From: a virus | DNA length: 64,000 nucleotides | Reading direction: 5' to 3' (one strand) | Virus record (IMG/VR): IMGVR_UViG_3300034418_008897 | Span: 1 to 64,000 of that record | Part shown: positions 14,388 through 64,000 of the stretch, piece by piece | How the letters are laid out: every line of letters starts with the position of its first letter | How positions within the stretch are numbered: the stretch's first letter is position 1 | The notes under the pieces: model-generated | Database searches by the model: none | What the model saw: only the letters and a program-made list of their open reading frames with translations | Told to the model about the DNA's origin: nothing | Made by a program: the position numbers and the translations under genes

Positions 14388-14388
14388 A

Positions 14389-14940: not shown

Positions 14941-14975
14941 ATTATTAAATACTAAACCTAATTAATTTAGGAGAT

Positions 14976-41756: not shown

Positions 41757-43172
41757 TTAAGCGATTCTTGCTTCTTGTACAATGAAAGATTTGTAAGGAT
41801 TGAATACAACAGCTCCAGAGTATCCTAATAAGTGGTATTCTGAACCGTGAACTCCTGTAGAAACTTCTCCTGAAGTTTTTCCATCAGCTCCACCCATTCC
41901 ATGTAAGTTACCAGAAATCATTTCTGATCCTTCTAATGTGAACGTAGCAACGTTTGGACGTCCTGAAGATAAATCAGCACCAGTATCTAAGAAAATACCG
42001 TATCCACCTTCTGGGTACTCTTGAGAAAGTACTCTATCTGGCATAAAAGAGATAGTGTTTCCTTGGAAGTGGTAAGTATCAAACTCAGCACCAACTTTAA
42101 CTTTTCCACCAGCTGCTTTAGAGTAGAAGTATGCTCCATCTGCTGAAGATTGGAAACGTAATTCAGAACTCATCAATTTACCAACTTGGTCGTAGAAACG
42201 CTCGTTACAAATAACTGCGTAAATGTTTCCTGTTGGAGCATCAGATTTTTCACGCATAGTAGCTAATACGTCATCTAATACGTCGATAGTCAAGATAGAG
42301 TAAGAGAATTTATCACAGTATCTTTCGATTTGTGGAATAACTCCGTCTCCCATTGGAATATCGCGTCCATGATCATCTTGATCTAAACATTTACCGTTAA
42401 CATCGTAGTTAGTTTCAGAGAACAAACAGTTTTGCTCACGAGAAATTAAGAAAGTATCTAAACATTCTTTCTCTTTTTTATTCATCTTGTAATAAGAAGA
42501 AGAATCTTTACTATCTTTTCCAGTTTGGATATAAATATCTTCCATCATTGCGAAATCAGCTGACCAAGAAGTAGAAGCTCTTTGACGAGATAAGTAGTTA
42601 CGGTGAGTTTCAGTGTTAGAAATCCACTTAGTATAACCTCTTTCAGATAATTCTGGGTGGTAATTTGAACGATAACGAGTATCTTTACCAGCAGCAGCAT
42701 AAGCAGTGTTGATAGTCTTAGACATATCATTACCAACTAATACCACTTTGTATTCCCAACGAGATTGAGATAATTTCTTAGGAGTAGAAACAACGAATAA
42801 TTGTTGTTTATTATCCAATGTGAAAGTATCGTTTTTATCGTAGTATCTTTCAGCTAAGATAATAGACTCTACGTTTTTGTTAGCTCCATCTCCAGAAATA
42901 GAACCCACGATTCTTACTTTTTTAATAAAGTTTACGTCGATATTCCACTCAATAACCATAGAGTTAATTGGTGTGAAAGATCCTGAACCTTTTTTAGGGT
43001 TGTAATAAACGTTTTTTAACGCGTCTGTCAACGTAGCTAAAGCTAGTTGTTTGTACATAGTAACTACAGTACCTAATTTATGAGGCTTAGCTCCTAATAA
43101 AGTACCGAAATTTTGTACAGTTTTTGTGTCGCCTAGATGCTGAACGACTGAATTTCTGTCTACAATTTTCAT
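41757..43172 (-). CDS. Major capsid protein (crAss type, HK97 fold)
   Basis: 471 aa; RYRSNYHPELSERG, GRDIPMGDGVIPQIER, KVGAEFDTY..QGN; strong codon bias; downstream terminator; follows the scaffold gene. Confidence 0.88.
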   Translation of the reverse strand: MKIVDRNSVVQHLGDTKTVQNFGTLLGAKPHKLGTVVTMYKQLALATLTDALKNVYYNPKKGSGSFTPINSMVIEWNIDVNFIKKVRIVGSISGDGANKNVESIILAERYYDKNDTFTLDNKQQLFVVSTPKKLSQSRWEYKVVLVGNDMSKTINTAYAAAGKDTRYRSNYHPELSERGYTKWISNTETHRNYLSRQRASTSWSADFAMMEDIYIQTGKDSKDSSSYYKMNKKEKECLDTFLISREQNCLFSETNYDVNGKCLDQDDHGRDIPMGDGVIPQIERYCDKFSYSILTIDVLDDVLATMREKSDAPTGNIYAVICNERFYDQVGKLMSSELRFQSSADGAYFYSKAAGGKVKVGAEFDTYHFQGNTISFMPDRVLSQEYPEGGYGIFLDTGADLSSGRPNVATFTLEGSEMISGNLHGMGGADGKTSGEVSTGVHGSEYHLLGYSGAVVFNPYKSFIVQEARIA

Positions 43173-46474: not shown

Positions 46475-47125
46475 TTATTCTATTGTTCTATATATAACAT
46501 CTTGTGCTTCATCATTTAAAATCCAGTTACCCACACCTTCTAATTTATAAGCGTAAGGCACTGTGCTTTTTTCTCTAGTTACAGTTTTATTACCATCTTT
46601 ATCTGTAGTAATTACAGTAACATATTTATAAATAGCATCTTTAAACTCTTTTGTTGGAGAGTTTTCTTCAAGTTCTATTTTTGGTTTTAATTCTTTAGAA
46701 GGAGAAATCTCAACAATAGATAAAGCCGCCCTCATTGGCATCTTATCTACTTTAGGCTTTTCTTTTTTAACTTCTTCAATTTTTGGAACAGAAGCTGCAA
46801 CAGTTTTTAAAACTACTTTTTTAGGTTGCTTTATATCTTCAAAACTGCTTATATTAAACGGTTGATTATTTTTAGCTTCTAACCTTTTAATAGCTGGTAC
46901 TATAACAGTAGCCTCATAAGATCTATTTTTTTCAGTATAATCTTGGTATGCTTTAACTTTTTCCTCTTGAGTATTTAAAGTTTTTAATTTAGATTCTAAT
47001 TCTTTAAAATAATTAAAAACTTTTGCGCTATCCGCTTCACTTTCTTTTAAGCCAGTTAAAGCTATGGGGTCTGTTGTGTAATAAACCCCGCTTGTACCAC
47101 TCTGATATTTTTTTAGTAGTGACAT
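46475..47125 (-). CDS. Tagged hypothetical protein (216 aa)
   Basis: Starts MSLLKKYQSG; abuts the portal stop. Confidence 0.6.
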   Translation of the reverse strand: MSLLKKYQSGTSGVYYTTDPIALTGLKESEADSAKVFNYFKELESKLKTLNTQEEKVKAYQDYTEKNRSYEATVIVPAIKRLEAKNNQPFNISSFEDIKQPKKVVLKTVAASVPKIEEVKKEKPKVDKMPMRAALSIVEISPSKELKPKIELEENSPTKEFKDAIYKYVTVITTDKDGNKTVTREKSTVPYAYKLEGVGNWILNDEAQDVIYRTIE

Positions 47126-49501: not shown

Positions 49502-50089
49502 TTATAATGTATATAAAATATCAAACTGATTAACTGTTTTCAATTTACAATCACTTTCATTTAGTATAAGATTTCCACAAAATGGATCAAAAGCTACAAC
49601 AGTGCCTTTTTTATATTTTTTAGCTTCTGGACCACAAGAAATAACTTCACCTTTTTGAGTTAAAGCTGATCTTGGATCTTCTTTACTATCATCATAAATA
49701 CCGTCTTTTACAAGACCTTCACCTATAATCTTAACTAAAATTCTATCACCTGTTGGTTTTACTGTTTCTTCTGTCATATTTTCAAAATTACTTGTTACTT
49801 TGGCCACTATATCATGACCTCTAATTATCTTACAGTATCCATCTGTAGTTGGAACTCCATAACCTGCAAACTGAGAAAAAATAATATTTTCTCCCTCTTT
49901 CAGTTCAGGACACTGGCTTTCTTCAGTTGCTTTATCTCCTAACTTTAAAGCACTACCGTAATAGTACTCAATATTACTTTTAGTAGCAACTGGACCAGAA
50001 CCAATATAGATTTCTCCATTTAAATTAGGTAATTCTGTTACTTCAGCTAAAACGTTAAACCCTTCTGGTTTAATTGTTAATTTCTCCAT
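49502..50089 (-). CDS. Co-chaperonin with two tandem GroES (Cpn10) domains
   Basis: IKPEGFNVLAE...LKEGENIIFSQFAG...IIRGHDIVAKV and VKPTGDRILVK...GEVISCGP...KKGTVVAF...VNQFDILYTL. Confidence 0.85.
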   Translation of the reverse strand: MEKLTIKPEGFNVLAEVTELPNLNGEIYIGSGPVATKSNIEYYYGSALKLGDKATEESQCPELKEGENIIFSQFAGYGVPTTDGYCKIIRGHDIVAKVTSNFENMTEETVKPTGDRILVKIIGEGLVKDGIYDDSKEDPRSALTQKGEVISCGPEAKKYKKGTVVAFDPFCGNLILNESDCKLKTVNQFDILYTL

Positions 50090-50150: not shown

Positions 50151-52424
50151 TTAATCATACATATATTTAGGGTTTTTAGGGTCTGTCATATCTATCCACC
50201 TAACCCCACCATGTCTATTGAAAGATTGCGCATCATTTCTAATTTGGTTTTTAAAAGCTTTTTCTTCGCTGTTTTGGTTAGGAATAACACCGTATCTTTT
50301 TATTTTTTTACCATTAACATATTCAGAATAGTACCCAAATAATTGCAAACCTTCTGTTGCTTTTTCTGGTGGTTTAGCTTCTCTACCCATAAGATCTTCA
50401 TCAGACAGCTCACATAATCCCATAGCAATAACAAAATCGTATTTTGTTCTGTCTTCTCTATTGTAATCTTGTAATTGCTCTAATAATTCAGGAAACCAAA
50501 TAATATCGTAAAAATCATCTATATAAGCCTTTATTTTTTGGTCCATATGGTCAATTATGGGACCAGCAGCTGTAGTACCTATAAGATTAGTATGTTTGTT
50601 TGGATCGGCATTTTGTAAATTAATAGATGGCCTTTTCTTTAGTAAGTGATAGAAGCCTTGATCTCTAAACCAACTTACAATACCTATTTTAGTGTATTCT
50701 ATATTTACTTCAGCATTAAAATAATAAGCTAATTTTAAAGCATTGTCCCAATCATCTCTTACATTGTCGGATCTTTTGTTATATTTAGCCACATATATAT
50801 TAGAAGTAGTTCTAAAATAACCTTTAGACAAAATCCTTTTCTTTACTAATATTGCTAATTCTGATCCTTTTCTATTATCTTTTGCATAAGATGAATCTGC
50901 TAAACCTTGGTCAATACTATCACAACCAGCAACATATAAATTAGACATAGGTTCTTTTTCGTCGTCCGCCGCGTCTTCTGATAACCAGTGAGGGTGCTCT
51001 AAAATTTCTACATCCCCAACAGGGCTAGGGTTCCAGGTAACACCTATAATTTTACCGTTTTCAGCCCTTTGCCATTTTAAAAATCCTTTACCTGGTTTTG
51101 GGCAATCTGGGTTATGAGAAATATTTATACGTTGAGTGGCTATTTTATCTTGGTTGAATATATTAGTACCTCTTCTAGTAAATACTTCTTTAATATTCAT
51201 AGGGTATTCTTGCAGTAAACCAGAATAAGTTTCAGGTTCATTTTTAGCTGCTTCTCTTTCTTTATTTACTTGCTCTGTAGCAAGTTCTACATCAGGGCAA
51301 CCAGTTACTTCCCAAGTACCAGCTCTTTTAATATGAGTTGGGCAAAAGAAACCTGATTCTATTTCAAAGTCGTTAGTTTCTAAAATTTCATGGGCCCTAG
51401 GATTACAAAATATACCTTCAGCTTCGTCATTCTCTATAGTACCACCAGTACCAGAATAAAGCACTTGACATTTTTTAATACTACCCATTACATACCATGA
51501 ACCACGACTTTCTCTTTTACAAGCCCCTAAAGACCCTTTTTGGTGGGAAGGCGGGAAAGCTGCAAACTCTTCTATTAATTGCTTAGTTGGACGCTTACCC
51601 CTTGTTTTACCGGCGTTTTTACCGTAGATGATTTTTTCATATTTACTTAAATGACCTCTATCTTCTGTAGTACCGTCGGGTAATTCTACCCTTTCTCCTG
51701 CATATTTCATATCAGAAGAGTCTGTAATAAGTTTTAATTTTAAAGGTCTATGTAAAGCTTCTATAGCATTTAACCCGGATTCTATTTTATTCCAAGCCTC
51801 GTTTGTTGTTTCTTCATTGGTAGAAGATACCAAGATATGGCTTTCAACCATAAGTCTAAACTCACGGTCTAATATACAGTTGTACATGAAAGATTTACCT
51901 ACACCACGACCACCCATAATGGCCGCATCTTTATTGTTTAAATAAGCTTTCCAACAATAATCAAAGAAGTATCTATCTATATTACTGTATTGAGGGTGAG
52001 AGGTTGTAAAGTCTTCTGTTGGTTTTCCATCTATATAAATAGGAACAGGAAAAACAAAAATATTTAACCAGTAAACAAAAAATGGATTATAATATTCACC
52101 ATCAATAAATACTCCATCGTAGCAGTAATCTATTAAAGGCTTATACCATTCTTCCATATCTAAGCTGTCTGGGTGAAAACTAGGTATATTTCTCCAAGCT
52201 GTTAATTCTTTAGGCAAAGGCCTGTACACTAAATAATCAGTTAATTTTATTTCTTCATGGCCGGTAGGAACACCAGTTAATCTTTTAGGGGCATTAGTAA
52301 CTTCAAATTCGCCATTCCATATTCTACCGTGCTCATCCTTTCTAAGAAAATCTAAGTCAAAAGGGTCATACTCATTTTTTACTCCAAAAAGTTCTGGTAT
52401 TTTATCTACATTAACTGTTTTCAT
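50151..52424 (-). CDS. terL: Terminase large subunit
   Basis: Walker A GGRGVGKS, Walker B LIEEFA, GTGG, QEYP, nuclease YVAGCDSIDQG and YDFVIAMGL. Confidence 0.92.
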   Translation of the reverse strand: MKTVNVDKIPELFGVKNEYDPFDLDFLRKDEHGRIWNGEFEVTNAPKRLTGVPTGHEEIKLTDYLVYRPLPKELTAWRNIPSFHPDSLDMEEWYKPLIDYCYDGVFIDGEYYNPFFVYWLNIFVFPVPIYIDGKPTEDFTTSHPQYSNIDRYFFDYCWKAYLNNKDAAIMGGRGVGKSFMYNCILDREFRLMVESHILVSSTNEETTNEAWNKIESGLNAIEALHRPLKLKLITDSSDMKYAGERVELPDGTTEDRGHLSKYEKIIYGKNAGKTRGKRPTKQLIEEFAAFPPSHQKGSLGACKRESRGSWYVMGSIKKCQVLYSGTGGTIENDEAEGIFCNPRAHEILETNDFEIESGFFCPTHIKRAGTWEVTGCPDVELATEQVNKEREAAKNEPETYSGLLQEYPMNIKEVFTRRGTNIFNQDKIATQRINISHNPDCPKPGKGFLKWQRAENGKIIGVTWNPSPVGDVEILEHPHWLSEDAADDEKEPMSNLYVAGCDSIDQGLADSSYAKDNRKGSELAILVKKRILSKGYFRTTSNIYVAKYNKRSDNVRDDWDNALKLAYYFNAEVNIEYTKIGIVSWFRDQGFYHLLKKRPSINLQNADPNKHTNLIGTTAAGPIIDHMDQKIKAYIDDFYDIIWFPELLEQLQDYNREDRTKYDFVIAMGLCELSDEDLMGREAKPPEKATEGLQLFGYYSEYVNGKKIKRYGVIPNQNSEEKAFKNQIRNDAQSFNRHGGVRWIDMTDPKNPKYMYD

Positions 52425-53022
52425 TGTCTCGTCTTCTTACTAAACTACCTCTTTCTATGAGTGACGAACCTTTATTACCCCTAACTCTACCGGAATTTTC
52501 CATCTTTTTAGCAGCGTTCATAACACTGATTTTCAATGTCATTAGTTTACCTATATTTTCCGCTAATTTAGATAATATGGTTTCATTAGAAGCGAAACTA
52601 ACTACACCAGTAGATTCGTTAACATTCCTAATTATTTCTATTTCTTCTTCTTCTAGTTTAGTACGGGCTTCATCTATCTTTTTATCGATAGCCAATACAG
52701 CTCTTTCAGCAGAAGTTTCGTTGAAAAAGTTGTAAGCATCAATAGCCGCGTCTATTAATTTTTGTTCTTCAGCTGTAAATTTATCTTTTTTACCGGCAAA
52801 AGCCCTAACCATAGCTTGTTCAGGCTTCATACGATAATCTAGATCCCTCATAATATTGTCTTCTGACAAATCACAACAATAATAGACATAAATTAACATA
52901 CGGTTTCCTAAATCTTCTGATTTTTTCTTTTTCCCGTATGCTAATATATTGTTGAATTCTTCTATTAATACTATATTGGGATCTATACAAACTTTGCTGT
53001 TATGTACAGTAAACTTTAGCAT
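52411..53022 (-). CDS. Helical protein overlapping terL (candidate small terminase)
   Basis: Overlaps the terL start; helical, with a basic C-terminal GRVRGNKG; function inferred from position only. Confidence 0.45.
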   Translation of the reverse strand: MLKFTVHNSKVCIDPNIVLIEEFNNILAYGKKKKSEDLGNRMLIYVYYCCDLSEDNIMRDLDYRMKPEQAMVRAFAGKKDKFTAEEQKLIDAAIDAYNFFNETSAERAVLAIDKKIDEARTKLEEEEIEIIRNVNESTGVVSFASNETILSKLAENIGKLMTLKISVMNAAKKMENSGRVRGNKGSSLIERGSLVRRRDNENS

Positions 53023-53243
53023 AATTTTTCTAAATCTTTTGAGCTAAAAGTTCTCTCTTGATACAACCCATCTTTTGTAAACCAAAAACAAGTTATACCT
53101 AATAAAATAGGTTTTTTAATAGCAGTGTCCTCTTTTGTAGGGCGGATTTTGCTAATTTTTTGCACAACCATTGTAGGTTTATGCGGGAGATCTTGTTTTA
53201 ATTGCACTAAGTCTCCTGTGTGGAAGTAAACGTGTAAACTCAT
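53016..53243 (-). CDS. DUF2158/YodC-like small protein
   Basis: FHTGDLVQLK...PTMVV...CFWF..DG.YQE.TF...DL. Confidence 0.75.
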   Translation of the reverse strand: MSLHVYFHTGDLVQLKQDLPHKPTMVVQKISKIRPTKEDTAIKKPILLGITCFWFTKDGLYQERTFSSKDLEKLC

Positions 53244-53307: not shown

Positions 53308-53490
53308 CTAAATTTTATATTTATCCCATTTACTATCTTCTTCCATCTGCGGTCTGTGTAATCTTGCAATAGTAGTCTCTTTATAAGTTTTGTGTAAAGG
53401 ATCTTTTTTAATTTTAGGTTCTACAATTTTTTTATTGTCATCGTAAACTTCAAATCCTTCGTCGCTGTCGTGTAGATCGTCTAAGTTCAT
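53308..53490 (-). CDS. 60 aa protein starting with the scaffold's LDDLH motif
   Basis: MNLDDLHDSDE; coupled to the upstream gene. Confidence 0.6.
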   Translation of the reverse strand: MNLDDLHDSDEGFEVYDDNKKIVEPKIKKDPLHKTYKETTIARLHRPQMEEDSKWDKYKI

Positions 53491-53491: not shown

Positions 53492-55228
53492 TTAATTTTG
53501 TTTTTGATAGATAATTTTACCGTTTTTTATTTGTTTTATTATATTACCTTTCGAGTCAAAAAAATCTATTACTCTAGAATCTGCCCCTAAAGTATTATCT
53601 AAAACTTCTTGCTCTCTAGATACAGGGTTTGTTCTTCTTGAAATATAGGGCTCAAATCCTTCTTCTATAGTAGTCTTTATAAATCTATCTTTATAATTAG
53701 AGTTAGTTTCTATGCTTTTTTTCATTAAGTCTCTTGCTGATTTTTCCCTTAATCTAGTTGCTTCTTTTAATTGATTAAACTCATCTAAATTTCTAGGCAT
53801 ACCAAGGCGAACAGAGTTAAAACTTTGAGGTTTTTCAACAGAAAGAAGAGTTGGTTGTTTTGCTTTTTTAATTGGGTATTTTAAAGCCATTACAGCAACC
53901 GGGTCTATCATTACATCAGCGATGGTATTAGTAACAGGATTATTTATTCCTTTGCTTTGTAAATAAGAACTTGGAGTTAAATGTTTGTTATTTGTAAACG
54001 CAGACATCATCATGTTTTGAGGAATGCTAAACATATCTAATAAAGTAGTATTATTAGATAATTCTATTTTTTCTGTACCAGGTTTATTATTTCTTAAATT
54101 ATCTTCGTAAATTTTATTTTTAACATCTTCTTCTTGTGCAGGTATAGCATTTTTATTTAACTCTGCTGCACGTTTACCATCTGGATCTTTAATTGGAACA
54201 TATCCGTTTGTTTTTCCAGGAATATTAATCATCCAACCAAATGCACCTTTCTGGTACCTTACACCTGGTCTACTTGGGTAGGTGTAGGTAACTGGACTTG
54301 TGCCATTTTGGTATTTTTTAATGTATAAAATTCCGCCTTTGCGAGCCATCATTATTTTATTTTTATTATTTGTATTAGCAATAGTATTAAAAATTTCTAA
54401 TAAATCATTGTCATTAAATCTCTGCTCTAATTGTTCAAGTTGATTTCTCCCATTTATACCTTTCATTTTAGCTTTTATTTTTTCTAAAATTTCCGGGGTC
54501 ATTGTTTCTGTATAAGGATCGAAAATGTTATTATCTTTTGCAAATTGCAATATTGCATCTTTTCTAGCACTTATTTCTTCTAATCTACCTAAATAATTTA
54601 ATTCCTTCAAGTTATTAATAATATGTTGCTTGCCTTGGTCGGTTTTTAAAAAATCTTCATAAGGCATCGACATAAAGAAATTATTTTCTTGTTCATATTT
54701 TAATTTAGCGTTTTGTGCTAATTTTGTGTCTTTAAAAAGCTCATATGCTTTATAAGGATTATTGTAATCAAATATAATTGCTTTTGCTTCAGGCATTTTT
54801 TCTGGCGTTGCAATTTGCCACTTTTGGTAATCATATTTTGGGAATGTATGGCCAGTTTCATTACTATTAGACATATGTCTATATTCATGAGTTTTAACAT
54901 AAGGATTATAATCTGGCATATTTGTAAACAAAGTAACATTTCTTTTACCTTCATAATAATTAGGGCTAGGATTAGCTTCCCCTAATACATTTGATAAAAT
55001 AGGAGGTTCATTTGTTTCAAAATCATTTAAATTTTTTAACCTTTCAGTTATTATTTCATCTGCTTTCAGTTGTAATTCTTCTTTATTTAAATTTGGAAAA
55101 TCTTTACTTAAAGAATTCAGTAATAATTCTTTGTGTTTAGGTGAATTAAACCAACCTTCTAAATATTCTTTTGAGTCGCTTGGGCTAACTAAAGTATTAC
55201 CTTTTTGATATTTTTTTAATAATGCCAT
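53492..55228 (-). CDS. Tagged two-module protein: zincin-like HExxH metallopeptidase + second module
   Basis: Starts MALLKKYQKG; THEYRH and a later EEISAR; internal MARKGGILYIKKYQNG junction. Confidence 0.7.
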   Translation of the reverse strand: MALLKKYQKGNTLVSPSDSKEYLEGWFNSPKHKELLLNSLSKDFPNLNKEELQLKADEIITERLKNLNDFETNEPPILSNVLGEANPSPNYYEGKRNVTLFTNMPDYNPYVKTHEYRHMSNSNETGHTFPKYDYQKWQIATPEKMPEAKAIIFDYNNPYKAYELFKDTKLAQNAKLKYEQENNFFMSMPYEDFLKTDQGKQHIINNLKELNYLGRLEEISARKDAILQFAKDNNIFDPYTETMTPEILEKIKAKMKGINGRNQLEQLEQRFNDNDLLEIFNTIANTNNKNKIMMARKGGILYIKKYQNGTSPVTYTYPSRPGVRYQKGAFGWMINIPGKTNGYVPIKDPDGKRAAELNKNAIPAQEEDVKNKIYEDNLRNNKPGTEKIELSNNTTLLDMFSIPQNMMMSAFTNNKHLTPSSYLQSKGINNPVTNTIADVMIDPVAVMALKYPIKKAKQPTLLSVEKPQSFNSVRLGMPRNLDEFNQLKEATRLREKSARDLMKKSIETNSNYKDRFIKTTIEEGFEPYISRRTNPVSREQEVLDNTLGADSRVIDFFDSKGNIIKQIKNGKIIYQKQN

Positions 55229-55252
55229 ATTATTATATATATTATAAATATT

Positions 55253-55438
55253 TTATTTTTTCAAGTTATGTATAGAATCTATTATATAATTTAAACAAGT
55301 ATCATTATATTTAACGTAATATTTAGCAAATTTTGTTAAGTTATTTATATTTTCCGGGCTAGCATCTGCCATATCCCCTTTTAAAACTTCAGGTAAATCA
55401 AAATTCATATTACTTATTTCCTTTGTTATAATTTTCAA
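55253..55438 (-). CDS. Hypothetical small protein
   Basis: Fills the gap between two payload genes; start uncertain. Confidence 0.4.
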   Translation of the reverse strand: MKIITKEISNMNFDLPEVLKGDMADASPENINNLTKFAKYYVKYNDTCLNYIIDSIHNLKK

Positions 55439-57626
55439 GGTCTTTTTTTACTCTGTCCATATGTCTTTTTGCCATATAGCCTAGAGGAATACTTGTTGCG
55501 CCAAGCAAACCAGCAGCCCCCTTTATAAACTTATTATTTGAAGCTTTATCCCAGTCTCTAAGCACATCCATTTGCTTTGTATTAGCTGCATTTTTAGTAC
55601 CCAACATAGTTAATTTAGCTGTTGTTTTTTGATTATCTCCTAAAGTACCTGGAGAAAATTCTTCAATAGTTTCAATAAGCTTATTGCCTTTATGATCAAA
55701 AAATTCACCTGAATCGTTGTAATATATTCTATTTTTCAAATCAAAAGGTTTACCACCTGTTAAAGAAGAAACTTCAAAATCTCTGACTTTATTAGGTAAG
55801 AATTTCATCTTTTTTAATGGTTGTAAATCCCATGTATCTGTAAAATCAATAAATTTTCTACCTTGCTCATCTACACCTTTTGTAATCCAACCATTACCAT
55901 GCACACCACCAAAATTTAATTCTTTTTCAATTTCCATAGTACCAAATGATTTTTTAGGATTATCTATTATTTTTTGCAGTTTATTCTTCTCTAATTTAAA
56001 ATCATTCAGCGCTAATGTATTATCTGCGTTTTTAGAGAAAGTATTAAACTCAGGTTCTAATCCGTTGTATAATCTCCAAGAATCAAATCTATTTTTAGTA
56101 GCGTAAGTTTTTGGCTTAAACTTCAAAGCTTTAGGTGTTATTACTTCTAATGGGGCTCCAGCTACTGTAAATAAATCATAACCTATAGGAGTTATAGATC
56201 TATTAACAATTTTACCTAACAAATTATTTTTAGCTTGCTTTGTATAGGTTTTCATTATTTCTTTTTGTCTCTCAGGACTAAATCTAAAACCAAAACCTTC
56301 ATATTTATTTGTAAATTGATTCCATTTAGCATCATTATATTTTCTTTTTAAACCTTTTAAAAAATCACCTTTGGGGGCAACAATATCTTCTCCAAGATTA
56401 ATTAAATCTTGTGGAGCTACATGAGAAGCTACTCCATGAATAAAATCTACCTTATTTACATTTATATTTTTAAGTTCTGGATTTAATTTTACTAAAGATT
56501 CATATACAACATTTAATTCAACTGGCTCTACAAGTCCTGCTTGAGATCTTCTAGCAAATTCATTTAATCTATTAACATCAACTCCTTCTGGTAAAACATA
56601 GTCATGCCCAAATTGAGGATTTACAAGTTTTGATTTTTTAATAGAAGGTTCAAATTTTTTAGTAACAAAATTATAATAGGAATCAGAATTCTTTTTAATA
56701 GCATCCACTGCTCTATAATGTACAGGATCTATACCTACTTGAGTCTTAGCAGATTGTAAATTATATTTTGGAAATTTATATTCAAAATTAGGTGAGCCTG
56801 GTAGTTGTTTAGTAAAATTATTAGCTAATAAACCCCTAGCATCATCTGCATATTTACCTAATACTTTACCGCCTAATCTTACCACATCAGGAGCCTTGTA
56901 TAATAATCCTGCAGGAGCTGTAACTATACCCGGCAAAGAAGCTGCATTTAAAGTATTTGGTGTGTATCTACCTGATAAAGCATCTCCTAATGTAGTAGGT
57001 TGATCGGCATTAGTAGCATATTTCATAACAAATGAACCTGGTATATCTGCAAAAGAAAGAGCATCAGCAGCATTTCCTAATTTTTGCATTACACCTTTAG
57101 GGTAGTAATATTTCGCTTCTTCAGCTGGAGTTAATCCTTTTATATCAGGTGTAAAAGTCGGTCCTTGCTTTCCTGTTAAATTTAAGAAGCTGTTAGCTGC
57201 GGATACTGCTCCACCTTTGGTTCTTGCCCACAATGAAGGCTCTATATATTTAGCATATTTAGAGTTAGGCATTGCTTTAGAAAGAATCTTAGCGTTAACT
57301 AAGTTATTCATTATAGACTCTCTATCTGTAAGATCTATATTATTTTCTTTAGCATACTGCTCTATAACATAATTATTTCTATCATAATCATATCGATTGT
57401 GTATCCTTTGTTCAGCTTGCTCAGGAAAATTTCTTTCGTTTACATTAAATAAATTTTGTAGTCCTTTATTACCTTTGTTTAAGTAATTATCTTTTTCATT
57501 TATAAGGTAATCACGATAAGGATTTTTAGAATTATAATCATTATAATACCTAGTTAAAGGAGTTATAGATGTTTCCTTTAACGTCTTTCCTTTTTGGTAT
57601 TTTCCTATTTTATTATATAACATCAT
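55410..57626 (-). CDS. Tagged multidomain protein (738 aa), unknown C-terminal domain
   Basis: Starts MMLYNKIGKYQKG; central Ala/Gly hydrophobic stretch; globular C-terminal domain (DTWDLQP, GGKPF); hydrophobic tail. Confidence 0.7.
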   Translation of the reverse strand: MMLYNKIGKYQKGKTLKETSITPLTRYYNDYNSKNPYRDYLINEKDNYLNKGNKGLQNLFNVNERNFPEQAEQRIHNRYDYDRNNYVIEQYAKENNIDLTDRESIMNNLVNAKILSKAMPNSKYAKYIEPSLWARTKGGAVSAANSFLNLTGKQGPTFTPDIKGLTPAEEAKYYYPKGVMQKLGNAADALSFADIPGSFVMKYATNADQPTTLGDALSGRYTPNTLNAASLPGIVTAPAGLLYKAPDVVRLGGKVLGKYADDARGLLANNFTKQLPGSPNFEYKFPKYNLQSAKTQVGIDPVHYRAVDAIKKNSDSYYNFVTKKFEPSIKKSKLVNPQFGHDYVLPEGVDVNRLNEFARRSQAGLVEPVELNVVYESLVKLNPELKNINVNKVDFIHGVASHVAPQDLINLGEDIVAPKGDFLKGLKRKYNDAKWNQFTNKYEGFGFRFSPERQKEIMKTYTKQAKNNLLGKIVNRSITPIGYDLFTVAGAPLEVITPKALKFKPKTYATKNRFDSWRLYNGLEPEFNTFSKNADNTLALNDFKLEKNKLQKIIDNPKKSFGTMEIEKELNFGGVHGNGWITKGVDEQGRKFIDFTDTWDLQPLKKMKFLPNKVRDFEVSSLTGGKPFDLKNRIYYNDSGEFFDHKGNKLIETIEEFSPGTLGDNQKTTAKLTMLGTKNAANTKQMDVLRDWDKASNNKFIKGAAGLLGATSIPLGYMAKRHMDRVKKDLENYNKGNK

Positions 57627-57628
57627 TT

Positions 57629-60142
57629 TTAATTTTGTTTTTTATTCCAAGGGTTATAAAGTAAAGATCCTAAACCTATTGGAGCTAATGCCTTATATAT
57701 ATTAGGGTTAGTCATGTCAAACATTCCATTATTACCTATTAAAGATTTAAGTCTATTGTTACCTTTAAAGAATATTACATCATCCCCTATATCTTCTCCT
57801 GGTTTTAACTTTAAAGAATTATCATAATTATCTACAACATTTTTAGCTGTAAAAGAATCGAACCCTTGTTTTTTATATCTTTCTGCTAATTTATTAGTAG
57901 TAAGAGGCGAAGTTTCACGAGCATTAGGATCTAAAAAATCATTTTTTTGGATTGTCATATCTTTTTTATAAGGGGCAGATTCAGGTAAAGATTTTAAATA
58001 TTTTTCTGCTGCTTGTTTTGATCTAAATGTATTTCCTTCTGGAGACAGCATATTACCAAAAGCATCATATTGCATACCTTCTTTATTATTAGAACCTACG
58101 ACATAACCACTTTTCTTACCTATCCAACTATTTCCTTTATAATCTACAGATTTATTTTTACCTAAATTTGCTCCTAATTCTAGCACCTTACCTTTATCCC
58201 CAGCATAAGTTTTAGCTATGTTTTTGTTAGTAGTCGTAAAAATTAGGTCAGGGTATAAATTTCCACTAGTTAATCTTTCTGCTTTACTTAAATCAAATTC
58301 TGTTAAATCTCTAGCTGGAGTTCCGTGGTATAGTACATTTTTATACATATTTTCAGCTTGTTTTTCCCCCCCTGCAAATCTTGTTAAATTTTTAGATTTC
58401 ATTTGGACAAACTGTTCTGGACTACCGTTGAATTTAGTACCGTCACTATATTTCATCCATGTTCCATCAGCTTTAGCTTGTTGCTCAATAGCATTATACT
58501 CTTGCATTAAAGCTTTATTTTCTGGTATTTCTTTATTCCATTTACCCCAATCTATTTCAGATTTAAAATCTTGAGTAGGTAATAAATCAGATAAGTATTT
58601 ATTTGTATTGATTACTTTAGATTTATCTGCTTTTGCTACTACTTCATCTATACTGTTTTTCCATTCTGTTATATCGTATTTAGCACCGCGTTTTTCTATT
58701 CTTTTTACAAACTCATCTTTTGGTATATTTATAATTTTATCAAAAGAGTCTAAATTATTCCTTAATAAGTTTGTATTTGATGTAAACAATACTTGCCCTT
58801 TACTTTTAGCTTCTTTTTTAACTTCATCAAATAAAGACTGCATCATTTGATTATATTCTTTATTCCATACTTCATTACCTCCGTTCTTTACTTGATATGT
58901 AGAAATATTATACTTTTTTGCAATATCATTTACTGAATTATTTATAACATCTGCATAGTCATCATCTAAAGATAAAAACCTATTGTCACCGGCTTGCTTT
59001 AAATAACTTTTACCTATAGTTGGATGACCAAATATAATTTCATCTGTGTTATTTATTACCGGTTCAAAAACACTTCCTGTAGCTTGCCCTACATCTTGAG
59101 CTTTTGCTCCTACAACTGCTTTATTATAAGCTTTTCTAACAATTGGATTATATTTTGCACTAGCTGGGTTTAATTGAGGCACTAACACAGATCTGAAATC
59201 GTTAGCTACACTAGTTGGAGTGGAACTAATCCTAGGAATTATTTTATTACCTATAATATTGTTTAATTTAGAAGAGTTGCTTAACCTCATAGTTTCCAAA
59301 GCAGCGCTTTCTCCCATGTTCATTAACCTACCAGAACGACCAATTAATTTAGTACCTGGTATAAGATCTAAAGCCGTAAATGCCGTTGAAGTTAAAGCAT
59401 TTTGCCAATCCTCCATTTTACCGCTTTTTATTGCTTTTCTTATGTCCTCTTCAGTGTAAAGAGCATCATTACCAGCATTAATTAAAGCAGTAGTTGGGTG
59501 TAAATATGAAGCTGCGTTTAAACCTTTTAAAACAGTGTTATTATCAAAAACGGGATCTGAAAATCCAGGCGATCTTTCCATAGCACTATAATTCATAGGC
59601 ATATTGAAAGGCCCAGGTTTTAAAAAATAAGCTGTTGCTACTAGAGGGTTTCTAATTATGTTTCCAGCTTTATCTGCCCAAGTATATTCAGGAGCCGATT
59701 GTATTGTCCCAGGATCTTTCGGATATACCATTGCTGGTATATAACTATCTATTTTGTTTGTATCTAATAGGATTTTAGCTTTATCTTCTTCAGACAACCA
59801 ATTAGCATTTTTAATTTTATCTACTACTATAGATCTTTCAGCAGCTCTTCTTTTTGAACCCTCTTCAACTATATTAGCAGCTGTATTAGCTATAAGTAAA
59901 TTTTTTGGTTGAGTTGATTCAGCAACTTCTACTCTAGGTAAAGAATTAAAATTAGCTGTATTAAAATTAGAATAAGGTATAGCGTTCTTATTTAATTCTG
60001 CTGTTCTTTGTTCTACATTTCCAGCAGTTAATGGTAAATATTTACCATTAATTTCTTTAAACCATTTATCTCCTTCTTTCTTATAATTGTGGTTATTATA
60101 TCTATAATACCCGCCGTCTTGATATTTTTTTAATAATGCCAT
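57629..60142 (-). CDS. Tagged polyvalent protein: P-loop kinase + ADP-ribosyltransferase-like (ART-PolyVal type) domain
   Basis: Starts MALLKKYQDGG; IIFGHPTIGKS; VLYHGT...FD...IFTT.NK.IAKTYA...GFDS...KSLIGNNGMFD..NPNIY. Confidence 0.72.
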   Translation of the reverse strand: MALLKKYQDGGYYRYNNHNYKKEGDKWFKEINGKYLPLTAGNVEQRTAELNKNAIPYSNFNTANFNSLPRVEVAESTQPKNLLIANTAANIVEEGSKRRAAERSIVVDKIKNANWLSEEDKAKILLDTNKIDSYIPAMVYPKDPGTIQSAPEYTWADKAGNIIRNPLVATAYFLKPGPFNMPMNYSAMERSPGFSDPVFDNNTVLKGLNAASYLHPTTALINAGNDALYTEEDIRKAIKSGKMEDWQNALTSTAFTALDLIPGTKLIGRSGRLMNMGESAALETMRLSNSSKLNNIIGNKIIPRISSTPTSVANDFRSVLVPQLNPASAKYNPIVRKAYNKAVVGAKAQDVGQATGSVFEPVINNTDEIIFGHPTIGKSYLKQAGDNRFLSLDDDYADVINNSVNDIAKKYNISTYQVKNGGNEVWNKEYNQMMQSLFDEVKKEAKSKGQVLFTSNTNLLRNNLDSFDKIINIPKDEFVKRIEKRGAKYDITEWKNSIDEVVAKADKSKVINTNKYLSDLLPTQDFKSEIDWGKWNKEIPENKALMQEYNAIEQQAKADGTWMKYSDGTKFNGSPEQFVQMKSKNLTRFAGGEKQAENMYKNVLYHGTPARDLTEFDLSKAERLTSGNLYPDLIFTTTNKNIAKTYAGDKGKVLELGANLGKNKSVDYKGNSWIGKKSGYVVGSNNKEGMQYDAFGNMLSPEGNTFRSKQAAEKYLKSLPESAPYKKDMTIQKNDFLDPNARETSPLTTNKLAERYKKQGFDSFTAKNVVDNYDNSLKLKPGEDIGDDVIFFKGNNRLKSLIGNNGMFDMTNPNIYKALAPIGLGSLLYNPWNKKQN

Positions 60143-60147
60143 AATAC

Positions 60148-61953
60148 TTATTTTGCAAAGTTTTTAGCAAAATTAGCCTTCTTGACCATCTTACTACTAT
60201 ATTTATTCTTATTAGCTAAAATATGGCTAGCTGCTTCTTGAACATCCATGCCCATTTTTGTAGCTTGCGCTTTAAATGTACCTTTCTTTTCAGGATCTAT
60301 TTTTATAGTATTTCCTTTTTTATATAAAAGACCACCTTTTTTAAAAATTGCAGTTTGAGGTATACTCTTACCTGCTGTTGATCTTATATAATTATCTAAA
60401 TTATACATGGTTTTATTTACATACTTATTTTTTGTGGCATCACCACGCAATAGTACACCTGGACTACGCCAAGCAGTTGCCCATCTTTCTTCAGGGCTTA
60501 ATTCTACATTACCCTCTGCTTGCCTATAAACTTCACCGTTTTTTACACTGTATAAATTGCCTTGATTGGGGTAGTATTTTTCTACTTCTTTTCTTAATAA
60601 AGCAGTTTTATATTGATCATCAACGTCATAATTTAAGAATACTCTTTTACCATTAGGTAGCATATAATAACCATCAAATGTTTCATCTGGTTTTTGAAAT
60701 GAACTACCTCTTAAATCCCTGGAAAAGAATTGCTTAGGTGAAGACCACATACCAGGAGCTTCTTTACTTTTAATAACCCTAGGATTTTCATTACCCCTAT
60801 TATATAAGCTCTTAGAAGATTTATCCAATTGGCTCAAATATATCATAGAAGCTAAACCAGCTTTATAAGGATCTTTTAAATCAGATCTAGATCTAATACC
60901 ATATTTATCCGCTATACTCGCTAACCTAGGGTCGTTAAAAATATTATCTGGGTTTATTTGAGTCATACCTATACTACTACCTACTAATTCTGAAGCATAC
61001 CCTTTGATTCCCTTCAAAGATTTACCGCCTTTGGTTTCGGTCATAGCAGTTGCGGTTAAAAAGTTAACCATTTGTTTGTATTTATCTGGGTCTAAATTTA
61101 AATCTTTAGCTAAATTATTTGCGTGTTGAACTAAAGCTAAAGTAAAATTACCTAAATCATGAGTTAAATATTTTTCCCCCTCACTACTATTATTTACTGC
61201 TTTTTCAAAACCAACTGATTTTTTAATTTTATCATAAGGATTTTGCACTTCAAAATCGTAGGATTTATTTTGCTCATCAAAAAACTTTTGAAAAAATTCT
61301 CTATTTAAATTTAAATTTTCTTCTGGTGCTATAACTGTTTGCAAATTATATTTTTTCCACACTTCTCTAGCTTCTGATAAAGTATATAATTTTTTATCAT
61401 AAGCATCCATTAATATAGATTCCCCAGTATCTTTATCCCATCCTACTTTGATCATAGTATGGTTAGAATTTTTATAGCCTTTGGCTTTAGAATAACCATA
61501 TGGGTGCATATCTTGATCAGGTCCCCATAAATAAAAAGTACCTACAGGGGTATCTAAATCAAAATTTTCATTTCTATTTTCATCTAAAATATTGTAAAAA
61601 GTCTTACCACTATCTGCGTATACCCCTGCTAAATCCCAACTGTCTACAGATCCCTTGTAATCACCTTTTAAATAAGGGTATTTTTCTATTTGTTCTGGTG
61701 TTGGTTGAGTAGATGTTGTCAATAAACCTCTAGCGTTTTCTATATCACCTATAGTTTTTACTCCAGGAATATAACCTAAACCTTTAGTATATAACAAACA
61801 AGCGTCCCCTTTACAATTACCCAGAGTACCTTCTAACATATTATCTCTAAAAAAGTCAGAATTAGCTCTGTCTTCTGCAGTATAAATTACTTTATCTATG
61901 CGAGTATTAAATCCTTTACCTGGTTGAAATTTTTTTACTTTGTTATATAGCAT
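60148..61953 (-). CDS. Tagged dual cell-wall hydrolase (papain-like Cys/His domain + lysozyme/SLT-like domain) with basic C-terminal module
   Basis: Starts MLYNKVKKFQPG; GDACLLY...DSWDL...NHTMI; ATAMTETKGG...SIGMTQI...DLKDPYKAGLASMIYL; IFKKGGLLYKKG precedes the last module. Confidence 0.6.
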   Translation of the reverse strand: MLYNKVKKFQPGKGFNTRIDKVIYTAEDRANSDFFRDNMLEGTLGNCKGDACLLYTKGLGYIPGVKTIGDIENARGLLTTSTQPTPEQIEKYPYLKGDYKGSVDSWDLAGVYADSGKTFYNILDENRNENFDLDTPVGTFYLWGPDQDMHPYGYSKAKGYKNSNHTMIKVGWDKDTGESILMDAYDKKLYTLSEAREVWKKYNLQTVIAPEENLNLNREFFQKFFDEQNKSYDFEVQNPYDKIKKSVGFEKAVNNSSEGEKYLTHDLGNFTLALVQHANNLAKDLNLDPDKYKQMVNFLTATAMTETKGGKSLKGIKGYASELVGSSIGMTQINPDNIFNDPRLASIADKYGIRSRSDLKDPYKAGLASMIYLSQLDKSSKSLYNRGNENPRVIKSKEAPGMWSSPKQFFSRDLRGSSFQKPDETFDGYYMLPNGKRVFLNYDVDDQYKTALLRKEVEKYYPNQGNLYSVKNGEVYRQAEGNVELSPEERWATAWRSPGVLLRGDATKNKYVNKTMYNLDNYIRSTAGKSIPQTAIFKKGGLLYKKGNTIKIDPEKKGTFKAQATKMGMDVQEAASHILANKNKYSSKMVKKANFAKNFAK

Positions 61954-61968
61954 ATCTTTTTTTTTGTT

Positions 61969-62862
61969 TTATTTTTTATACAATAAACCGCCTTTTTTGA
62001 ATTTGTAAGTTTTAACAGCTTTAGCATATTGTCTTTCAAACTCAGGGTTAGATTTATATAAAATTTTATTTACATAATCTCTAGTTTCTCTAGGTAGCTC
62101 GTTCATCCACTCTTTCCCTTTATAAATATCTACGCCTTTTTTCTTTTGTTCATTCAAATATTCTAAAAAATTACCTCTTCCATGGTTGTAAGCTGCTAAA
62201 GTTTTAGCTAACCTTATCTCATTAGATTGATTAGGTTTATTAATGAAAGATGCATTATACAAATCAGTCATGTACCATTTCTGAATCTTAGCACTAACTT
62301 CAGGATCATATAAACTATCTGTAGATTTTATTATTCCTGCTTTTACAGCATCCCCCTTTACATCAGGCATTATTTGCGCTAAGCCAGCAGCACCAGCGGG
62401 AGATACTGATTTAGGGTTAAAGCTAGATTCTTTAAATTGTTGTCTTAATAAAAAATCATTAGTGAATATTTCAGAATTTACTTTAGGCTCTGCTTTAGGC
62501 TCAGGTTTAGCATCTGATACAAGTTTAGGCTCAGAAGAATCTTTAATATATCTTTCTGGTTTTTCTGGTTCACCAAAGAAAGACTTACCATAAGCAGGTA
62601 CATCTGTTCTTAGTTGTGTAGATGGTAATCTAAGCTCATCATTTAACTTTGATTTGCGAGATCCATCGGGGTCTTTTATAGCTACATAGTAACCATTAGT
62701 ACTTTCATTCTTTATAAACCAATCATCAAAAGCATCTTTCATATAAGTAGATCCTGGTCTTTCAGGGTGTACATATATTTTTTTATCGAAAATATCTGCT
62801 TCATTTATAGTTCTACCTGGAGCTTTAGGTTTTGGTTTTTTATCGTTGTACAATAAAGACAT
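61969..62862 (-). CDS. Tagged lytic transglycosylase (SLT domain)
   Basis: ATG at 62862 (MSLLYN) preferred; KESSFNPKSVSPAGAAGLAQIMP, LAAYNHG, LPRETRDYVNKI; ends FKKGGLLYKK. Confidence 0.9.
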   Translation of the reverse strand: MSLLYNDKKPKPKAPGRTINEADIFDKKIYVHPERPGSTYMKDAFDDWFIKNESTNGYYVAIKDPDGSRKSKLNDELRLPSTQLRTDVPAYGKSFFGEPEKPERYIKDSSEPKLVSDAKPEPKAEPKVNSEIFTNDFLLRQQFKESSFNPKSVSPAGAAGLAQIMPDVKGDAVKAGIIKSTDSLYDPEVSAKIQKWYMTDLYNASFINKPNQSNEIRLAKTLAAYNHGRGNFLEYLNEQKKKGVDIYKGKEWMNELPRETRDYVNKILYKSNPEFERQYAKAVKTYKFKKGGLLYKK

Positions 62863-62870
62863 AATTAAAA

Positions 62871-63125
62871 TCAATTCATTAAACTAAATTTTTGTCTGTA
62901 AGCTAATTTCTTACTAACTACCTCATTATCAGCAATTTCTCTTACAGAACAAAATATAATATTTTCTTCTCCATACTTATCATACATATTTTGTATAGCT
63001 TCTACAGGATGTTTTCCTTCTCTTAAAAGCTTAAGATGTACAGAAACACTAGCATTAAAATCTTGAGTAGTATTAATGTAGATGTACTCATCTTGTATAC
63101 TAGTTATGTAGTAAAGAGTTGCCAT
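62871..63125 (-). CDS. Degenerate GIY-YIG-like protein
   Basis: TLYYIT...YIYINTT...HLKLLREGKH....IQ.MYDKYGEENIIF. Confidence 0.6.
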   Translation of the reverse strand: MATLYYITSIQDEYIYINTTQDFNASVSVHLKLLREGKHPVEAIQNMYDKYGEENIIFCSVREIADNEVVSKKLAYRQKFSLMN

Positions 63126-63142
63126 AGAAATTTATAGTAAAT

Positions 63143-63179
63143 AAAAAAGAAAAAACCAGAATAAATTAATATCCTGGCT
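63143..63179 (-). terminator. Intrinsic terminator
   Basis: Minus strand GCCAGGATA-TTAATT-TATTCTGGT followed by TTTTTCTTTTTT. Confidence 0.65.
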
Positions 63180-63205
63180 GAAATTTTTATATGTAAAATA
63201 ATAAA

Positions 63206-63952
63206 TTAAAATCTATATTTTAAACCTGCTCTGATATTATAATTAGAGTCGTATTTACCTTTATCATATCTACCTTCTAAATTACCTGATAATTTAGGCG
63301 TGAAATATTTTTCGGCATTAATATTAGCGCCTACTCTGTAGTTTTCATTCTTACCTAGACCTTTTTCAGCGGAAGCAGAAACCCCTAAATAACCATTCTT
63401 CAAAGGCACTCCTTTATTAACATTATAGCCTAAAGAAAAGCTAGGGCGGCTTATACCTTTATATGTCACAAATTCAGGAAATCCGGGTGCACTAGGTATT
63501 TTATCCATAGCGTAGTTAGCCTCAGCCTTGACCCCTAGGGACCCTAAATTTTTAGGTAAGTCTTTGTATAAACTAGACTCGAACCTATTAAACTCTTCTA
63601 TCTGCGGATATTGTTCTATTATTTTTTCACCATTTTTATCTACATCTTCATAAATTCTCATTCTCTTTGCCTTCTCAAGGCTAGCCATACCATCAACTCT
63701 AAAACCTTTAGGCAAAGCAGCACCAGCACCACCCATTTTCATATAGTCATTGGGAGCTTCTAATCTTTCTTCATGGCTCCACCCATAAGCAGTAGGATTC
63801 CATCTACCAACAGGAGCTGATAAATTTATCCTAGGTTCTTCTTTTTCTACTAAAGGGCTGGTATTCATAAACTTATGTTTAAGGTCTAAATCCTTTATAT
63901 AGGAATTTATAGTACCTTCTGTTTGATATTTTTTAGTATATAGTAAAGACAT
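63206..63952 (-). CDS. Tagged protein with outer-membrane beta-barrel-like C-terminal half
   Basis: Starts MSLLYTKKYQTEG; amphipathic strands; ends YNIRAGLKYRF. Confidence 0.6.
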   Translation of the reverse strand: MSLLYTKKYQTEGTINSYIKDLDLKHKFMNTSPLVEKEEPRINLSAPVGRWNPTAYGWSHEERLEAPNDYMKMGGAGAALPKGFRVDGMASLEKAKRMRIYEDVDKNGEKIIEQYPQIEEFNRFESSLYKDLPKNLGSLGVKAEANYAMDKIPSAPGFPEFVTYKGISRPSFSLGYNVNKGVPLKNGYLGVSASAEKGLGKNENYRVGANINAEKYFTPKLSGNLEGRYDKGKYDSNYNIRAGLKYRF

Positions 63953-64000
63953 AATTATTTTTTATTATATAATATTCCTCCTTTGTTAAACTTATAACTA

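Follow-up and report, generated by a model that had tools for sequence, protein, structure and literature searches.

This analysis concerns an array of tandem late genes whose products begin with a common short peptide, hereafter the tag, in a virus related to crAss-like phages. The window, i.e., the whole stretch of DNA that was analysed, comprises positions 1–64,000 of an 80.5-kb IMG/VR virus record (IMGVR_UViG_3300034418_008897); its GC content is about 30%, all of its genes lie on the minus strand, and coordinates prefixed G000 run past its end. An initial annotation described six large tagged open reading frames (ORFs) in tandem at 53492–63952, upstream of the terminase gene, and both statements are borne out: the six ORFs encode 248, 301/297, 601, 837, 738 and 578 amino acids (aa), and three small conserved genes intervene between them and terL. 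Two further tagged genes lie past the window end (G000 63955–65379 and 65384–66121), and because these extend the series, the array consists of eight tagged genes, T1 to T8, that head the late operon. Beyond T1, a divergent intergenic region of ~590 bp is followed by early genes on the plus strand. The array and its flank are laid out as follows.

G000 65384–66121, minus strand: T1, 245 aa, tagged, barrel-like (T1 and T2 together are L002 1955–4121)
G000 63955–65379, minus strand: T2, 474 aa, tagged; its 3' end lies in the window at 63955–64000
63206–63952, minus strand: T3, 248 aa, with the N-terminal tag MSLLYTKKYQTEG at 63914–63952
62871–63125, minus strand: untagged ORF of 84 aa (phrog_7168, 1.7e-4, positions 1–73/284 aligned)
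61969–62862, minus strand: T4, 297 aa from the tag methionine, with the degenerate tag MSLLYNDKKPKPK
60148–61953, minus strand: T5, 601 aa, with tag, N-domain, SLT-like motifs, internal tag and mini-domain
57629–60142, minus strand: T6, 837 aa, with the tag at 60110–60142
55410–57626, minus strand: T7, 738 aa, with the tag MMLYNKIGKYQKGK at 57585–57626
53492–55228, minus strand: T8, 578 aa, with the tag at 55199–55228
53308–53490, minus strand: conserved acidic ORF of 60 aa, ending SKWDKYKI
52411–53243, minus strand: conserved 75-aa and 203-aa genes in the gap between the array and terL, which served as flank markers for the turnover test
50151–52424, minus strand: terL, large terminase (phrog_6681, 1.6e-46)

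The tag peptide and the turnover of its bearers

The shared tag claimed by the initial annotation is present throughout: all eight array genes begin with M-x-LL(Y/K)-x-KK-(Y/F)-Q-x-G, the copy in T4 being degenerate. The core of this peptide, K[YF]QxG, occurs in 10 copies in the 21.5 thousand residues of late-strand proteins, nine of which fall among the first 25 residues of their proteins; shuffles (n = 500) gave means of 0.35 overall and 0.03 for that N-terminal stretch, and none of the 36 early proteins has the core. Statistically the feature is solid, and both array and tag are real. Further copies are found elsewhere in the array: T2 and T4 end in copies of the KKGGLLYKK type, another lies near the end of T5, and T8 holds a complete internal tag junction (KGGILYIKKYQNG, 54302–54340). 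At least four late proteins outside the array are also tagged, specifically proteins of 216 aa, 101 aa (at both ends) and 696 aa, as well as a DUF5872 protein (at its C-terminus). The first of these is encoded next to the portal gene:

46475–47125, minus strand: tagged gene of 216 aa (MSLLKKYQSG), inserted with the portal gene on one side and the next conserved gene on the other

Apart from this phage, the closest relative, L014, is the sole one to have the gene; its slot is empty in the other relatives, which indicates that tagged genes can insert elsewhere in the late operon. The DUF5872 protein (window 36858–37478) bears the C-terminal copy WKKGGILNSLIYKK, and its homologues in L016 (866–1560) are located inside the array upstream of terL and are tagged at both ends.

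Tag codons differ synonymously (e.g., serine is written TCT, AGT, TCA or TCG) and the DNA upstream of the tags shows no conservation; thus, the conserved object is the peptide, with selection acting at the peptide level. For the same reasons, a DNA-level repeat, a promoter or a ribosome-binding site was rejected as an explanation of the tag. An origin as a by-product of AU-rich translation starts was rejected as well, since internal and C-terminal copies exist; it is also opposed by the untagged state of other late genes and by a W-type form of the motif (see below) that is not AU-rich. The codons of KKGG read AAAGGAGG, yet their distance to the next start exceeds 30 nt. Scans for sigma-70-type promoters and for terminators gave counts not above those of shuffles. 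The tag is neither hydrophobic nor a signal peptide. No description of the motif strings was found in the literature, and a term search turned up no mention of the tag or junction peptide in PMC5512222 and PMC10172136.

Cassette turnover, which the initial annotation had suggested comparing across close relatives, was examined in 16 IMG/VR loci whose TerL is 68–88% identical. The flanks are conserved: the product of the 203-aa gene before terL is 61–79% identical in 13 of the 16 relatives, that of the GroES-like gene after terL is 54–77% identical in 15 of 16, and the 75-aa ORF is kept. Next to these conserved genes the cassettes are replaced, and gene content is far from invariant, the opposite of the outcome that the initial annotation had named as speaking against it. 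The number of tagged genes per relative ranges from 0 to ~6, and the cassettes differ almost wholly, with just scattered pieces in common, namely the N-terminal part of T5 (29% identity), the T5 mini-domain (61–68%), the C-terminal module of T6 (34%) and a 45-aa module. The tags of the relatives are of the same kind (MSLLYKYQSGG, MILRKYQLGG and MLLKKYQNGD, or FKNGGVLYGKR at a C-terminus), and an untagged patatin-like phospholipase (PF01734, 4.9e-30) is encoded in their arrays as well. In L006 (2519–2984), a small tagged gene shifts frame in the poly-A run of its tag (…KKGGKLLYKKKSKMC) and a mini-domain like that of crAss001 gp45 continues in the other frame; a sequencing error or slippage on the A-run could be responsible. 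If loading into the particle were set by the tag and not by the payload, cassettes could be freely swapped, fused and split, a proposal that would explain their rapid turnover.

The 84-aa ORF between T3 and T4 matches the N-terminal part of homing endonucleases and is probably a remnant. An 88-aa homologue is present in the array of L007, and the arrays of L006, L007 and L012 are interrupted by longer endonuclease-like ORFs, which are Cys-rich and have no Pfam matches. Such insertions in several arrays, together with the placement of the motif exactly at module boundaries, agree with the idea that the motif has no loading role and is a pliable hinge, or a junction favourable to recombination, which just marks module boundaries and persists because it tolerates domain swaps. 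However, the synonymous codon variation described above speaks against a recombination signal at the DNA level, a hinge would not need conserved aromatic and basic residues, and copies are also retained at free termini, which a hinge could not serve. To this idea we give a very slim chance.

Domains carried by the tagged proteins

Behind the tag, the array products differ in their domains, which the initial annotation had listed gene by gene. The lytic transglycosylase (SLT) domain of T4 is confirmed by its Pfam match (PF01464, 5.6e-17, 61.8 bits vs a gathering score of 21.3); PHROG matches of T4 are named endolysin, lytic tail protein and internal virion protein with endolysin domain. T4 runs from its degenerate tag through a 45-aa module (62641–62775) and the SLT domain (62134–62433) to a C-terminal FKKGGLLYKK (61972–62001). 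T4 and T5 are in the same frame, with one TAA and five codons between them at window 61954–61971 (…KKGGLLYKK-stop-NKKKDMLYNKVKKFQ…), so that read-through or a recent split would yield one protein with two adjacent tag cores.

The 45-aa module (consensus RPGxxYxK..W..I....GY..I.D......ELNKNAxP) is placed behind the tag in T4, T6 and T8 and lies inside T2 (L002 ~2650–2790), whose C-terminus is the tag copy FNKGGILYNKK. Elsewhere, in relatives and metagenomic proteins, this module precedes SLT, phage-lysozyme or VgrG3-like lysozyme domains. Thus, the position behind tag and 45-aa module is taken by SLT in this phage vs a phage lysozyme in L008.

For T5, a Cys/His hydrolase and a lysozyme-like domain had been claimed; the motifs are present, but searches of Pfam, of PDB chains and with family profiles gave no matches, and both calls stay at motif level. 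Its N-domain (~61264–61896) has Cys47, Cys52 and His165 invariant in a 4-sequence alignment. An SLT-like series of motifs follows (TETKGG, GMTQ, IYLSQL and KYVNK, ~60394–61086), for which hhalign gives a probability of 12% against the C-terminal part of T4, where the SLT lies, and Pfam gives no matches; then come an internal KKGGLLYKKG (60313–60342) and the mini-domain (60151–60312). The HExxH peptidase proposed for T8 fared likewise: the HEYRH...TGH motif exists, but no family was matched in Pfam, PHROGs or PDB sequences. T8 consists of two fused tagged cassettes, in which an orphan N-domain is followed by the junction at 54302–54340, the 45-aa module (54155–54286) and a module shared with lysozyme-bearing proteins. 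Homologues of aa 1–296 were looked for and none were found; aa 297–449 are the sole part with homologues (P0155, P0156 and P0157), of which P0155 bears a VgrG3-like lysozyme domain.

Other searches gave little. Single domains of T1–T3 and T5–T8 returned noise only from Pfam at E up to 10, and at this level MPTase, MuF and ArdC-N were not matched either. PHROGs gave no matches for T1, T2, T3, T7, T8 and most late genes, word-indexed homologue searches with T5, T7 and T8 recovered just 2–3 relatives each, and sequence searches of PDB chains with T5, T6 and their family profiles returned nothing meaningful.

For T6, 873 metagenomic homologues of 228–5,649 aa were recovered by an exhaustive search. 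These delimit three independently recurring modules (aa 70–357, 355–528 and 524–837); the gene reads as tag, 45-aa module (59975–60115), module 1 (59072–59935), a kinase-like module (58568–59053) and an ADP-ribosyltransferase (ART)-like module (57632–58573). The kinase and ART-like assignment of the initial annotation holds for the fold of the former, a P-loop of nucleoside monophosphate (NMP)-kinase type, and is only modestly supported for the latter, by fold and a conserved triad. In an AlphaFold model of aa 340–837 (predicted local distance difference test, pLDDT, 72.8), aa 364–525 adopt the P-loop NMP-kinase fold, and the Walker A motif GHPTIGKS is invariant in 10 homologues. VIA comparisons gave Z 9.5 to the dephospho-CoA kinase 8dv0_A (root-mean-square deviation, rmsd, 3.8; 158 aligned) and Z 8–8.9 to shikimate kinases (8.9 for 3vaa_A), and Foldseek gave probabilities of 0.97–1.0 with a best E of 4e-3. 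A P-loop NMP-kinase-like domain in T6 is thus supported by the modelled fold.

With more modest support, the C-terminal module of T6 is probably ART-like by fold, in a poorer model of aa 520–837 (pLDDT 61). The wide VIA list consists almost entirely of the ART superfamily: a RES toxin (Z 6.0, rmsd 3.8, 113 aligned), MbcT (Z 5.9) and ParT (Z 5.8), and also tankyrase, diphtheria-toxin homologues, exotoxin A, poly(ADP-ribose) polymerases (PARPs), Tpt1 and Arr. The best Foldseek match has E = 0.027, Pfam gives none, and one homologue of the module has a sub-threshold match to DUF3990. In a 40-sequence alignment, the triad positions hold H in 32 and R in 7 sequences (606), Y in 26 and F in 10 (635), and E in 22 and D in 14 (787); T6 itself has H, F and D, and the alternatives in the family are typical of ARTs. 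The most conserved parts of the family are non-catalytic, i.e., a helical subdomain at the N-terminal side and a tail that hardly varies (GNNGMFDMTNPNIYK in T6; KSxIGNNGMFDMTNPNIYK in the family), which is followed by an Ala/Gly stretch. A match to the ejectosome of cyanophage A4 (Z 5.3) was too weak to use, and 'ADP-ribosyl' was absent from a text search of PMC12002296.

Proteins P0014–P0063, homologues of T6 aa 355–528, often start with M-x-C and have a Cys 1–3 residues from the C-terminus (…KKCS, …IKCL or …QCKL), resembling another terminal motif pair; a third type, DWEIIQD, and the conserved leader MKKTPKNIPSPYKF also recur among them.

T7 had been listed as an unknown domain and still has no identified domain after Pfam and PHROG searches; an Atlas search was uninformative (best score 0.79) and tblastn against phages gave no matches. 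The sequence FTDTWDLQP lies at aa ~590–600 of T7. The layout that T7 (738 aa) and T6 (837 aa) were said to share is seen in composition, both being Ala/Gly-rich, but does not extend to detectable homology, which was rejected at a best BLASTP E of 0.15. The Ala/Gly-rich stretches of both proteins are weakly hydrophobic (Kyte-Doolittle 1.0–1.2), and transmembrane helices in them were rejected, no 19-residue window exceeding 1.25.

Finally, the beta-barrel-like domain ascribed to T3 stands as a lead only: it has no family match, and for its Atlas model (pLDDT 0.61) all matches are to families of outer-membrane beta-barrels (TM 0.48–0.64). The protein is beta-rich and lacks a signal peptide, and its C-terminal GLKYRF resembles a beta-signal, which would suit a barrel of outer-membrane protein (OMP)-like type.

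Crassvirus cargo and the proposed role of the tag

Metagenomic proteins as long as 5,649 aa contain modules of T6, and the P-loop module is also found in a 2,068-aa protein of cr124_1 that adjoins a giant helicase-like protein. An analogous motif of the W type, GGWLDxYxxGG (e.g., KNGGWLDKYQNGG and KANGGWLDSYEEGG), lies at both termini of such proteins and between their modules. Among 149 T6 homologues it was counted 15 times at the N-terminus, 23 times at the C-terminus and 43 times internally, vs 0.3, 0.4 and 11.8 in shuffles; 14 proteins have it at both ends, and a protein holds up to five copies. The recurrence of the modules and the analogous junction motif in the giants support the view of the initial annotation that the array is a split polyvalent system of separately tagged cassettes. 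The SKWDKYKI end of the 60-aa acidic ORF, which also occurs within the arrays of L004, L006 and L007, resembles the core of the W-type motif, and this small protein might be an adaptor or a tag mimic.

The left GG is missing from N-terminal copies of the motif, and the right GG from C-terminal ones. As glycines are present only on the side of a neighbouring domain, the aromatic and basic core appears self-sufficient, with the glycines as mere linkers. Such a pattern is more in keeping with a docking element than with a pure cleavage site, although cleavage is still compatible with it. The peptide might instead be mainly a proteolytic processing site, at whose GG-flanked junctions giant cargo polyproteins would be cut by a phage or host protease, as in the removal of a T4 targeting peptide by gp21 or in the GG-X proteases of viral polyproteins; the terminal copies of the split array would then be leader and trailer pieces removed after loading, which is compatible with an address function. 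Internal copies do have Gly-Gly on both sides, the fused junction of T8 corresponds to separate genes elsewhere, the HExxH motif of T8 could belong to a processing peptidase, and autoprocessing by their own peptidase domains has been proposed for polyvalent proteins (PMC5512222). Yet the full core is kept at natural N- and C-termini, where a pure cut site would not need it, many tags of the window have a single Gly after Q (QKGN, QKGK, QPGK, QTEG), no protease family was matched in the window and the HExxH domain of T8 lacks family support. We regard processing as the main function of the peptide as unlikely.

Several links lead to the cargo proteins of crAss001, a phage whose gp45 was proven to be a cargo protein by mass spectrometry and cryo-electron microscopy and binds the portal through aa 425–552 (Bayfield et al. 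2023, PMC10172136). Particles of crassviruses contain several megadaltons of cargo protein (PMC10172136). First, P0007, a homologue of the C-terminal module of T6, is fused to PF25725 (crAss_CARG1), a family whose matches are limited to P0007, gp45 and cr108_1. Second, the C-terminal mini-domain of T5 aligns to gp45 aa 368–424 (hhalign probability 70%, E = 3.9e-5) and is found in post-muzzle genes of cr108_1, next to CARG1, and of cr127_1, in a gene annotated as lysozyme. Third, gp45 has the junction-type sequence GGWLNTQGG at aa 431–439, in the first residues of its portal-bound domain (aa 424–555). These links are indirect, and because of them virion cargo is the best reading of the array.

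The array could alternatively encode late effectors that are not packaged, such as lysis accessories or superinfection-exclusion, anti-defence or toxin proteins that act in the producing cell or after release, with the tag serving in membrane or wall targeting, as a chaperone handle or in non-classical export. SLT domains are known in endolysins too, as PHROG names attest, the arrays of relatives contain the untagged patatin-like phospholipase, and OMP-like proteins would have to get to the periplasm. Against this stand the presence elsewhere in the genome of a dedicated endolysin and two membrane-protein genes, a tag that is neither hydrophobic nor a signal peptide, the presence of this motif family in gp45, where it lies at the portal-bound domain, and the recurrence of the modules inside giant proteins typical of packaged crassvirus proteins. 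The lysis cassette (13872–15323) consists of the endolysin gene and two small ORFs with hydrophobic N-terminal stretches and lies apart from the array:

13872–14387, minus strand: endolysin (phrog_2649, 3e-27)

Because this separate cassette exists, the wall hydrolases of the array would be dispensable for lysis. We therefore hold an unpackaged set of effectors to be rather improbable.

On balance, with a probability of roughly 0.6, we read the array as a set of accessory genes for cargo (ejection) proteins in a distant crAss-like phage, encoded separately and not in one giant gene. The tag would probably be an address or docking tag that marks proteins for particle loading and injection. Each product is seen to start with a short peptide that can be written (GG)-[L/W]-L-x-K-[Y/F]-Q-x-G(G), which in some products also stands at the end or in between, and to consist of one or a few exchangeable modules, drawn from peptidoglycan lytic transglycosylases, OMP-like barrels, P-loop kinase-like, ART-fold and unassigned modules. 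According to the proposal, the peptide core would recruit its bearer into a cargo compartment, be it the portal, the capsid interior or the tail barrel, and upon infection the cargo would be expelled ahead of the DNA. Lytic transglycosylases could then open the cell wall, barrel-like and Ala/Gly-rich proteins could act at membranes, and kinase-like and ART-like enzymes could modify host targets. Envelope breach, one of the roles assigned by the initial annotation, is plausible given two proteins of peptidoglycan-hydrolase type and a separate lysis cassette; host takeover or anti-defence, the other, may be considered on the basis solely of the kinase-like and ART-like folds. A more specific version is put forward tentatively and looks doubtful as a whole: the tag would be a portable crAss-like virion-loading signal, by which any bearer, be it a single gene product or a segment of a giant protein, would dock at the portal or tail barrel and be injected, and signal-less barrels would be delivered from outside to the periplasm and inserted by the beta-barrel assembly machinery (BAM) of the host as the outer-membrane part of an ejection channel.

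Several points weigh against the cargo reading. It places the proteins in the virion by the homology of small accessory pieces and by gene position, and that position (53492–66121) is outside the canonical post-muzzle location of cargo genes (muzzle gene at 29957–35335). No window protein matches PF25725 crAss_CARG1 in Pfam, no prohead protease was recognised in the window, and most late genes are without annotation. Of the payloads, the ART-like call is modest (Z ≤ 6.0, pLDDT 61, and F and D in T6 vs the usual Y and E of the family), the barrel call depends on a third-party model (pLDDT 0.61), and three enzyme calls, i.e., the Cys/His hydrolase, the second lysozyme-like domain and the HExxH peptidase, are at motif level only.

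The array resembles known kinds of systems, namely polyvalent or cargo proteins and T4-like targeting tags. With crAss001 gp45 and gp46 it shares a crassvirus-like architecture, the homology of the T5 mini-domain, the CARG1 fusion in a homologue and the junction-type motif of gp45. It differs from them in that eight genes head the operon upstream of terL, whereas in crAss001 one or two genes follow that of the muzzle, in the use of the variant LLYKKYQxG as an N-terminal tag, and in its payloads of enzymes and barrel-like proteins, of which gp45 and gp46 have none. Polyvalent proteins combine mix-and-match enzymatic modules and have their genes close to those of portal and terminase; packaging and injection have been predicted for them (Iyer et al. 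2017, PMC5512222). Similarly, T6 combines P-loop kinase-like and ART-like modules, T8 is a fusion of two cassettes (the remaining array proteins show a single recognisable module or none), the array adjoins the terL and portal genes, and modules of T6 occur in giant multi-domain proteins. In contrast to polyvalent proteins, the set is split into ORFs with mostly one or two modules each, its kinase has a P-loop NMP-kinase fold and not the protein-kinase type described in PMC5512222, and MPTase, MuF and ArdC-N are not matched.

The capsid targeting sequence (CTS) of T4 is an N-terminal peptide on the internal proteins IPI–III and on Alt, present at the N-terminus only and removed by the prohead protease gp21. 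As in the array, a short common N-terminal peptide is borne by unrelated proteins, which in T4 include an ADP-ribosyltransferase and travel in the particle to be injected; the resemblance is an analogy and not homology: there is no sequence similarity, the copies described here are also C-terminal and internal, and their loading role is a proposal. The packaging and injection of T4 Alt are summarised in PMC5512222. Podovirus ejection proteins (T7 gp14–gp16 and cyanophage A4 gp26–gp29) include a lytic transglycosylase, and in A4 also a peptidase, and act at the outer membrane, in the periplasm and at the inner membrane (PMC12002296). Homology of the array to these sets is limited to the SLT fold, and they are fixed and conserved whereas the array is variable and tagged. 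What is new here is that the set is split completely, each gene having its own tag, and stands at the operon head; also new are the tag variant LLYKKYQxG, barrel-like proteins that are tagged but signal-less, and the direct demonstration of cassette turnover.

A common tag on unrelated cargo would offer a testable handle on how crassviruses select and load their cargo. If the proposal is true, the tag also accounts for fast-changing repertoires of injected proteins, since the payload can be swapped while the loading system is left intact. In addition, the locus flags large families, i.e., the ART-like proteins with a near-invariant tail, the P-loop kinase-like proteins, the 45-aa module and the signal-less OMP-like proteins.

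Particle genes and other features of the window

Crassviruses are among the most abundant phages known. The following genes bear on the affiliation of this phage and on the surroundings of the array.

49502–50089, minus strand: GroES-like gene between terL and portal (Cpn10, 2.7e-9), conserved in all relatives
47126–49495, minus strand: portal (phrog_6547, 2e-51)
41757–43172, minus strand: major capsid protein (PF23898)
38047–38742, minus strand: ring protein 2 (crassvirus family)
29957–35335, minus strand: muzzle protein (PF25731, 1.5e-33)

With capsid, ring and muzzle families, portal and terL present, the phage is assigned from its gene content to the crAss-like podoviruses, as a distant member. 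TerL is only 22–27% identical to full-length TerL matches in described Crassvirales, which is why the relationship is termed distant. Correspondingly, megablast of the array against GenBank phages gave no matches. The tail module holds a ferritin-like gene (37478–38044, 7e-18). At the other end of the window, positions 1–6870 are occupied by a giant ORF, over 2,289 aa in length, with weak helicase-type matches and no tag copies, which can be likened to the giant 'DNA helicase' that adjoins the P-loop-bearing giant protein of cr124_1.

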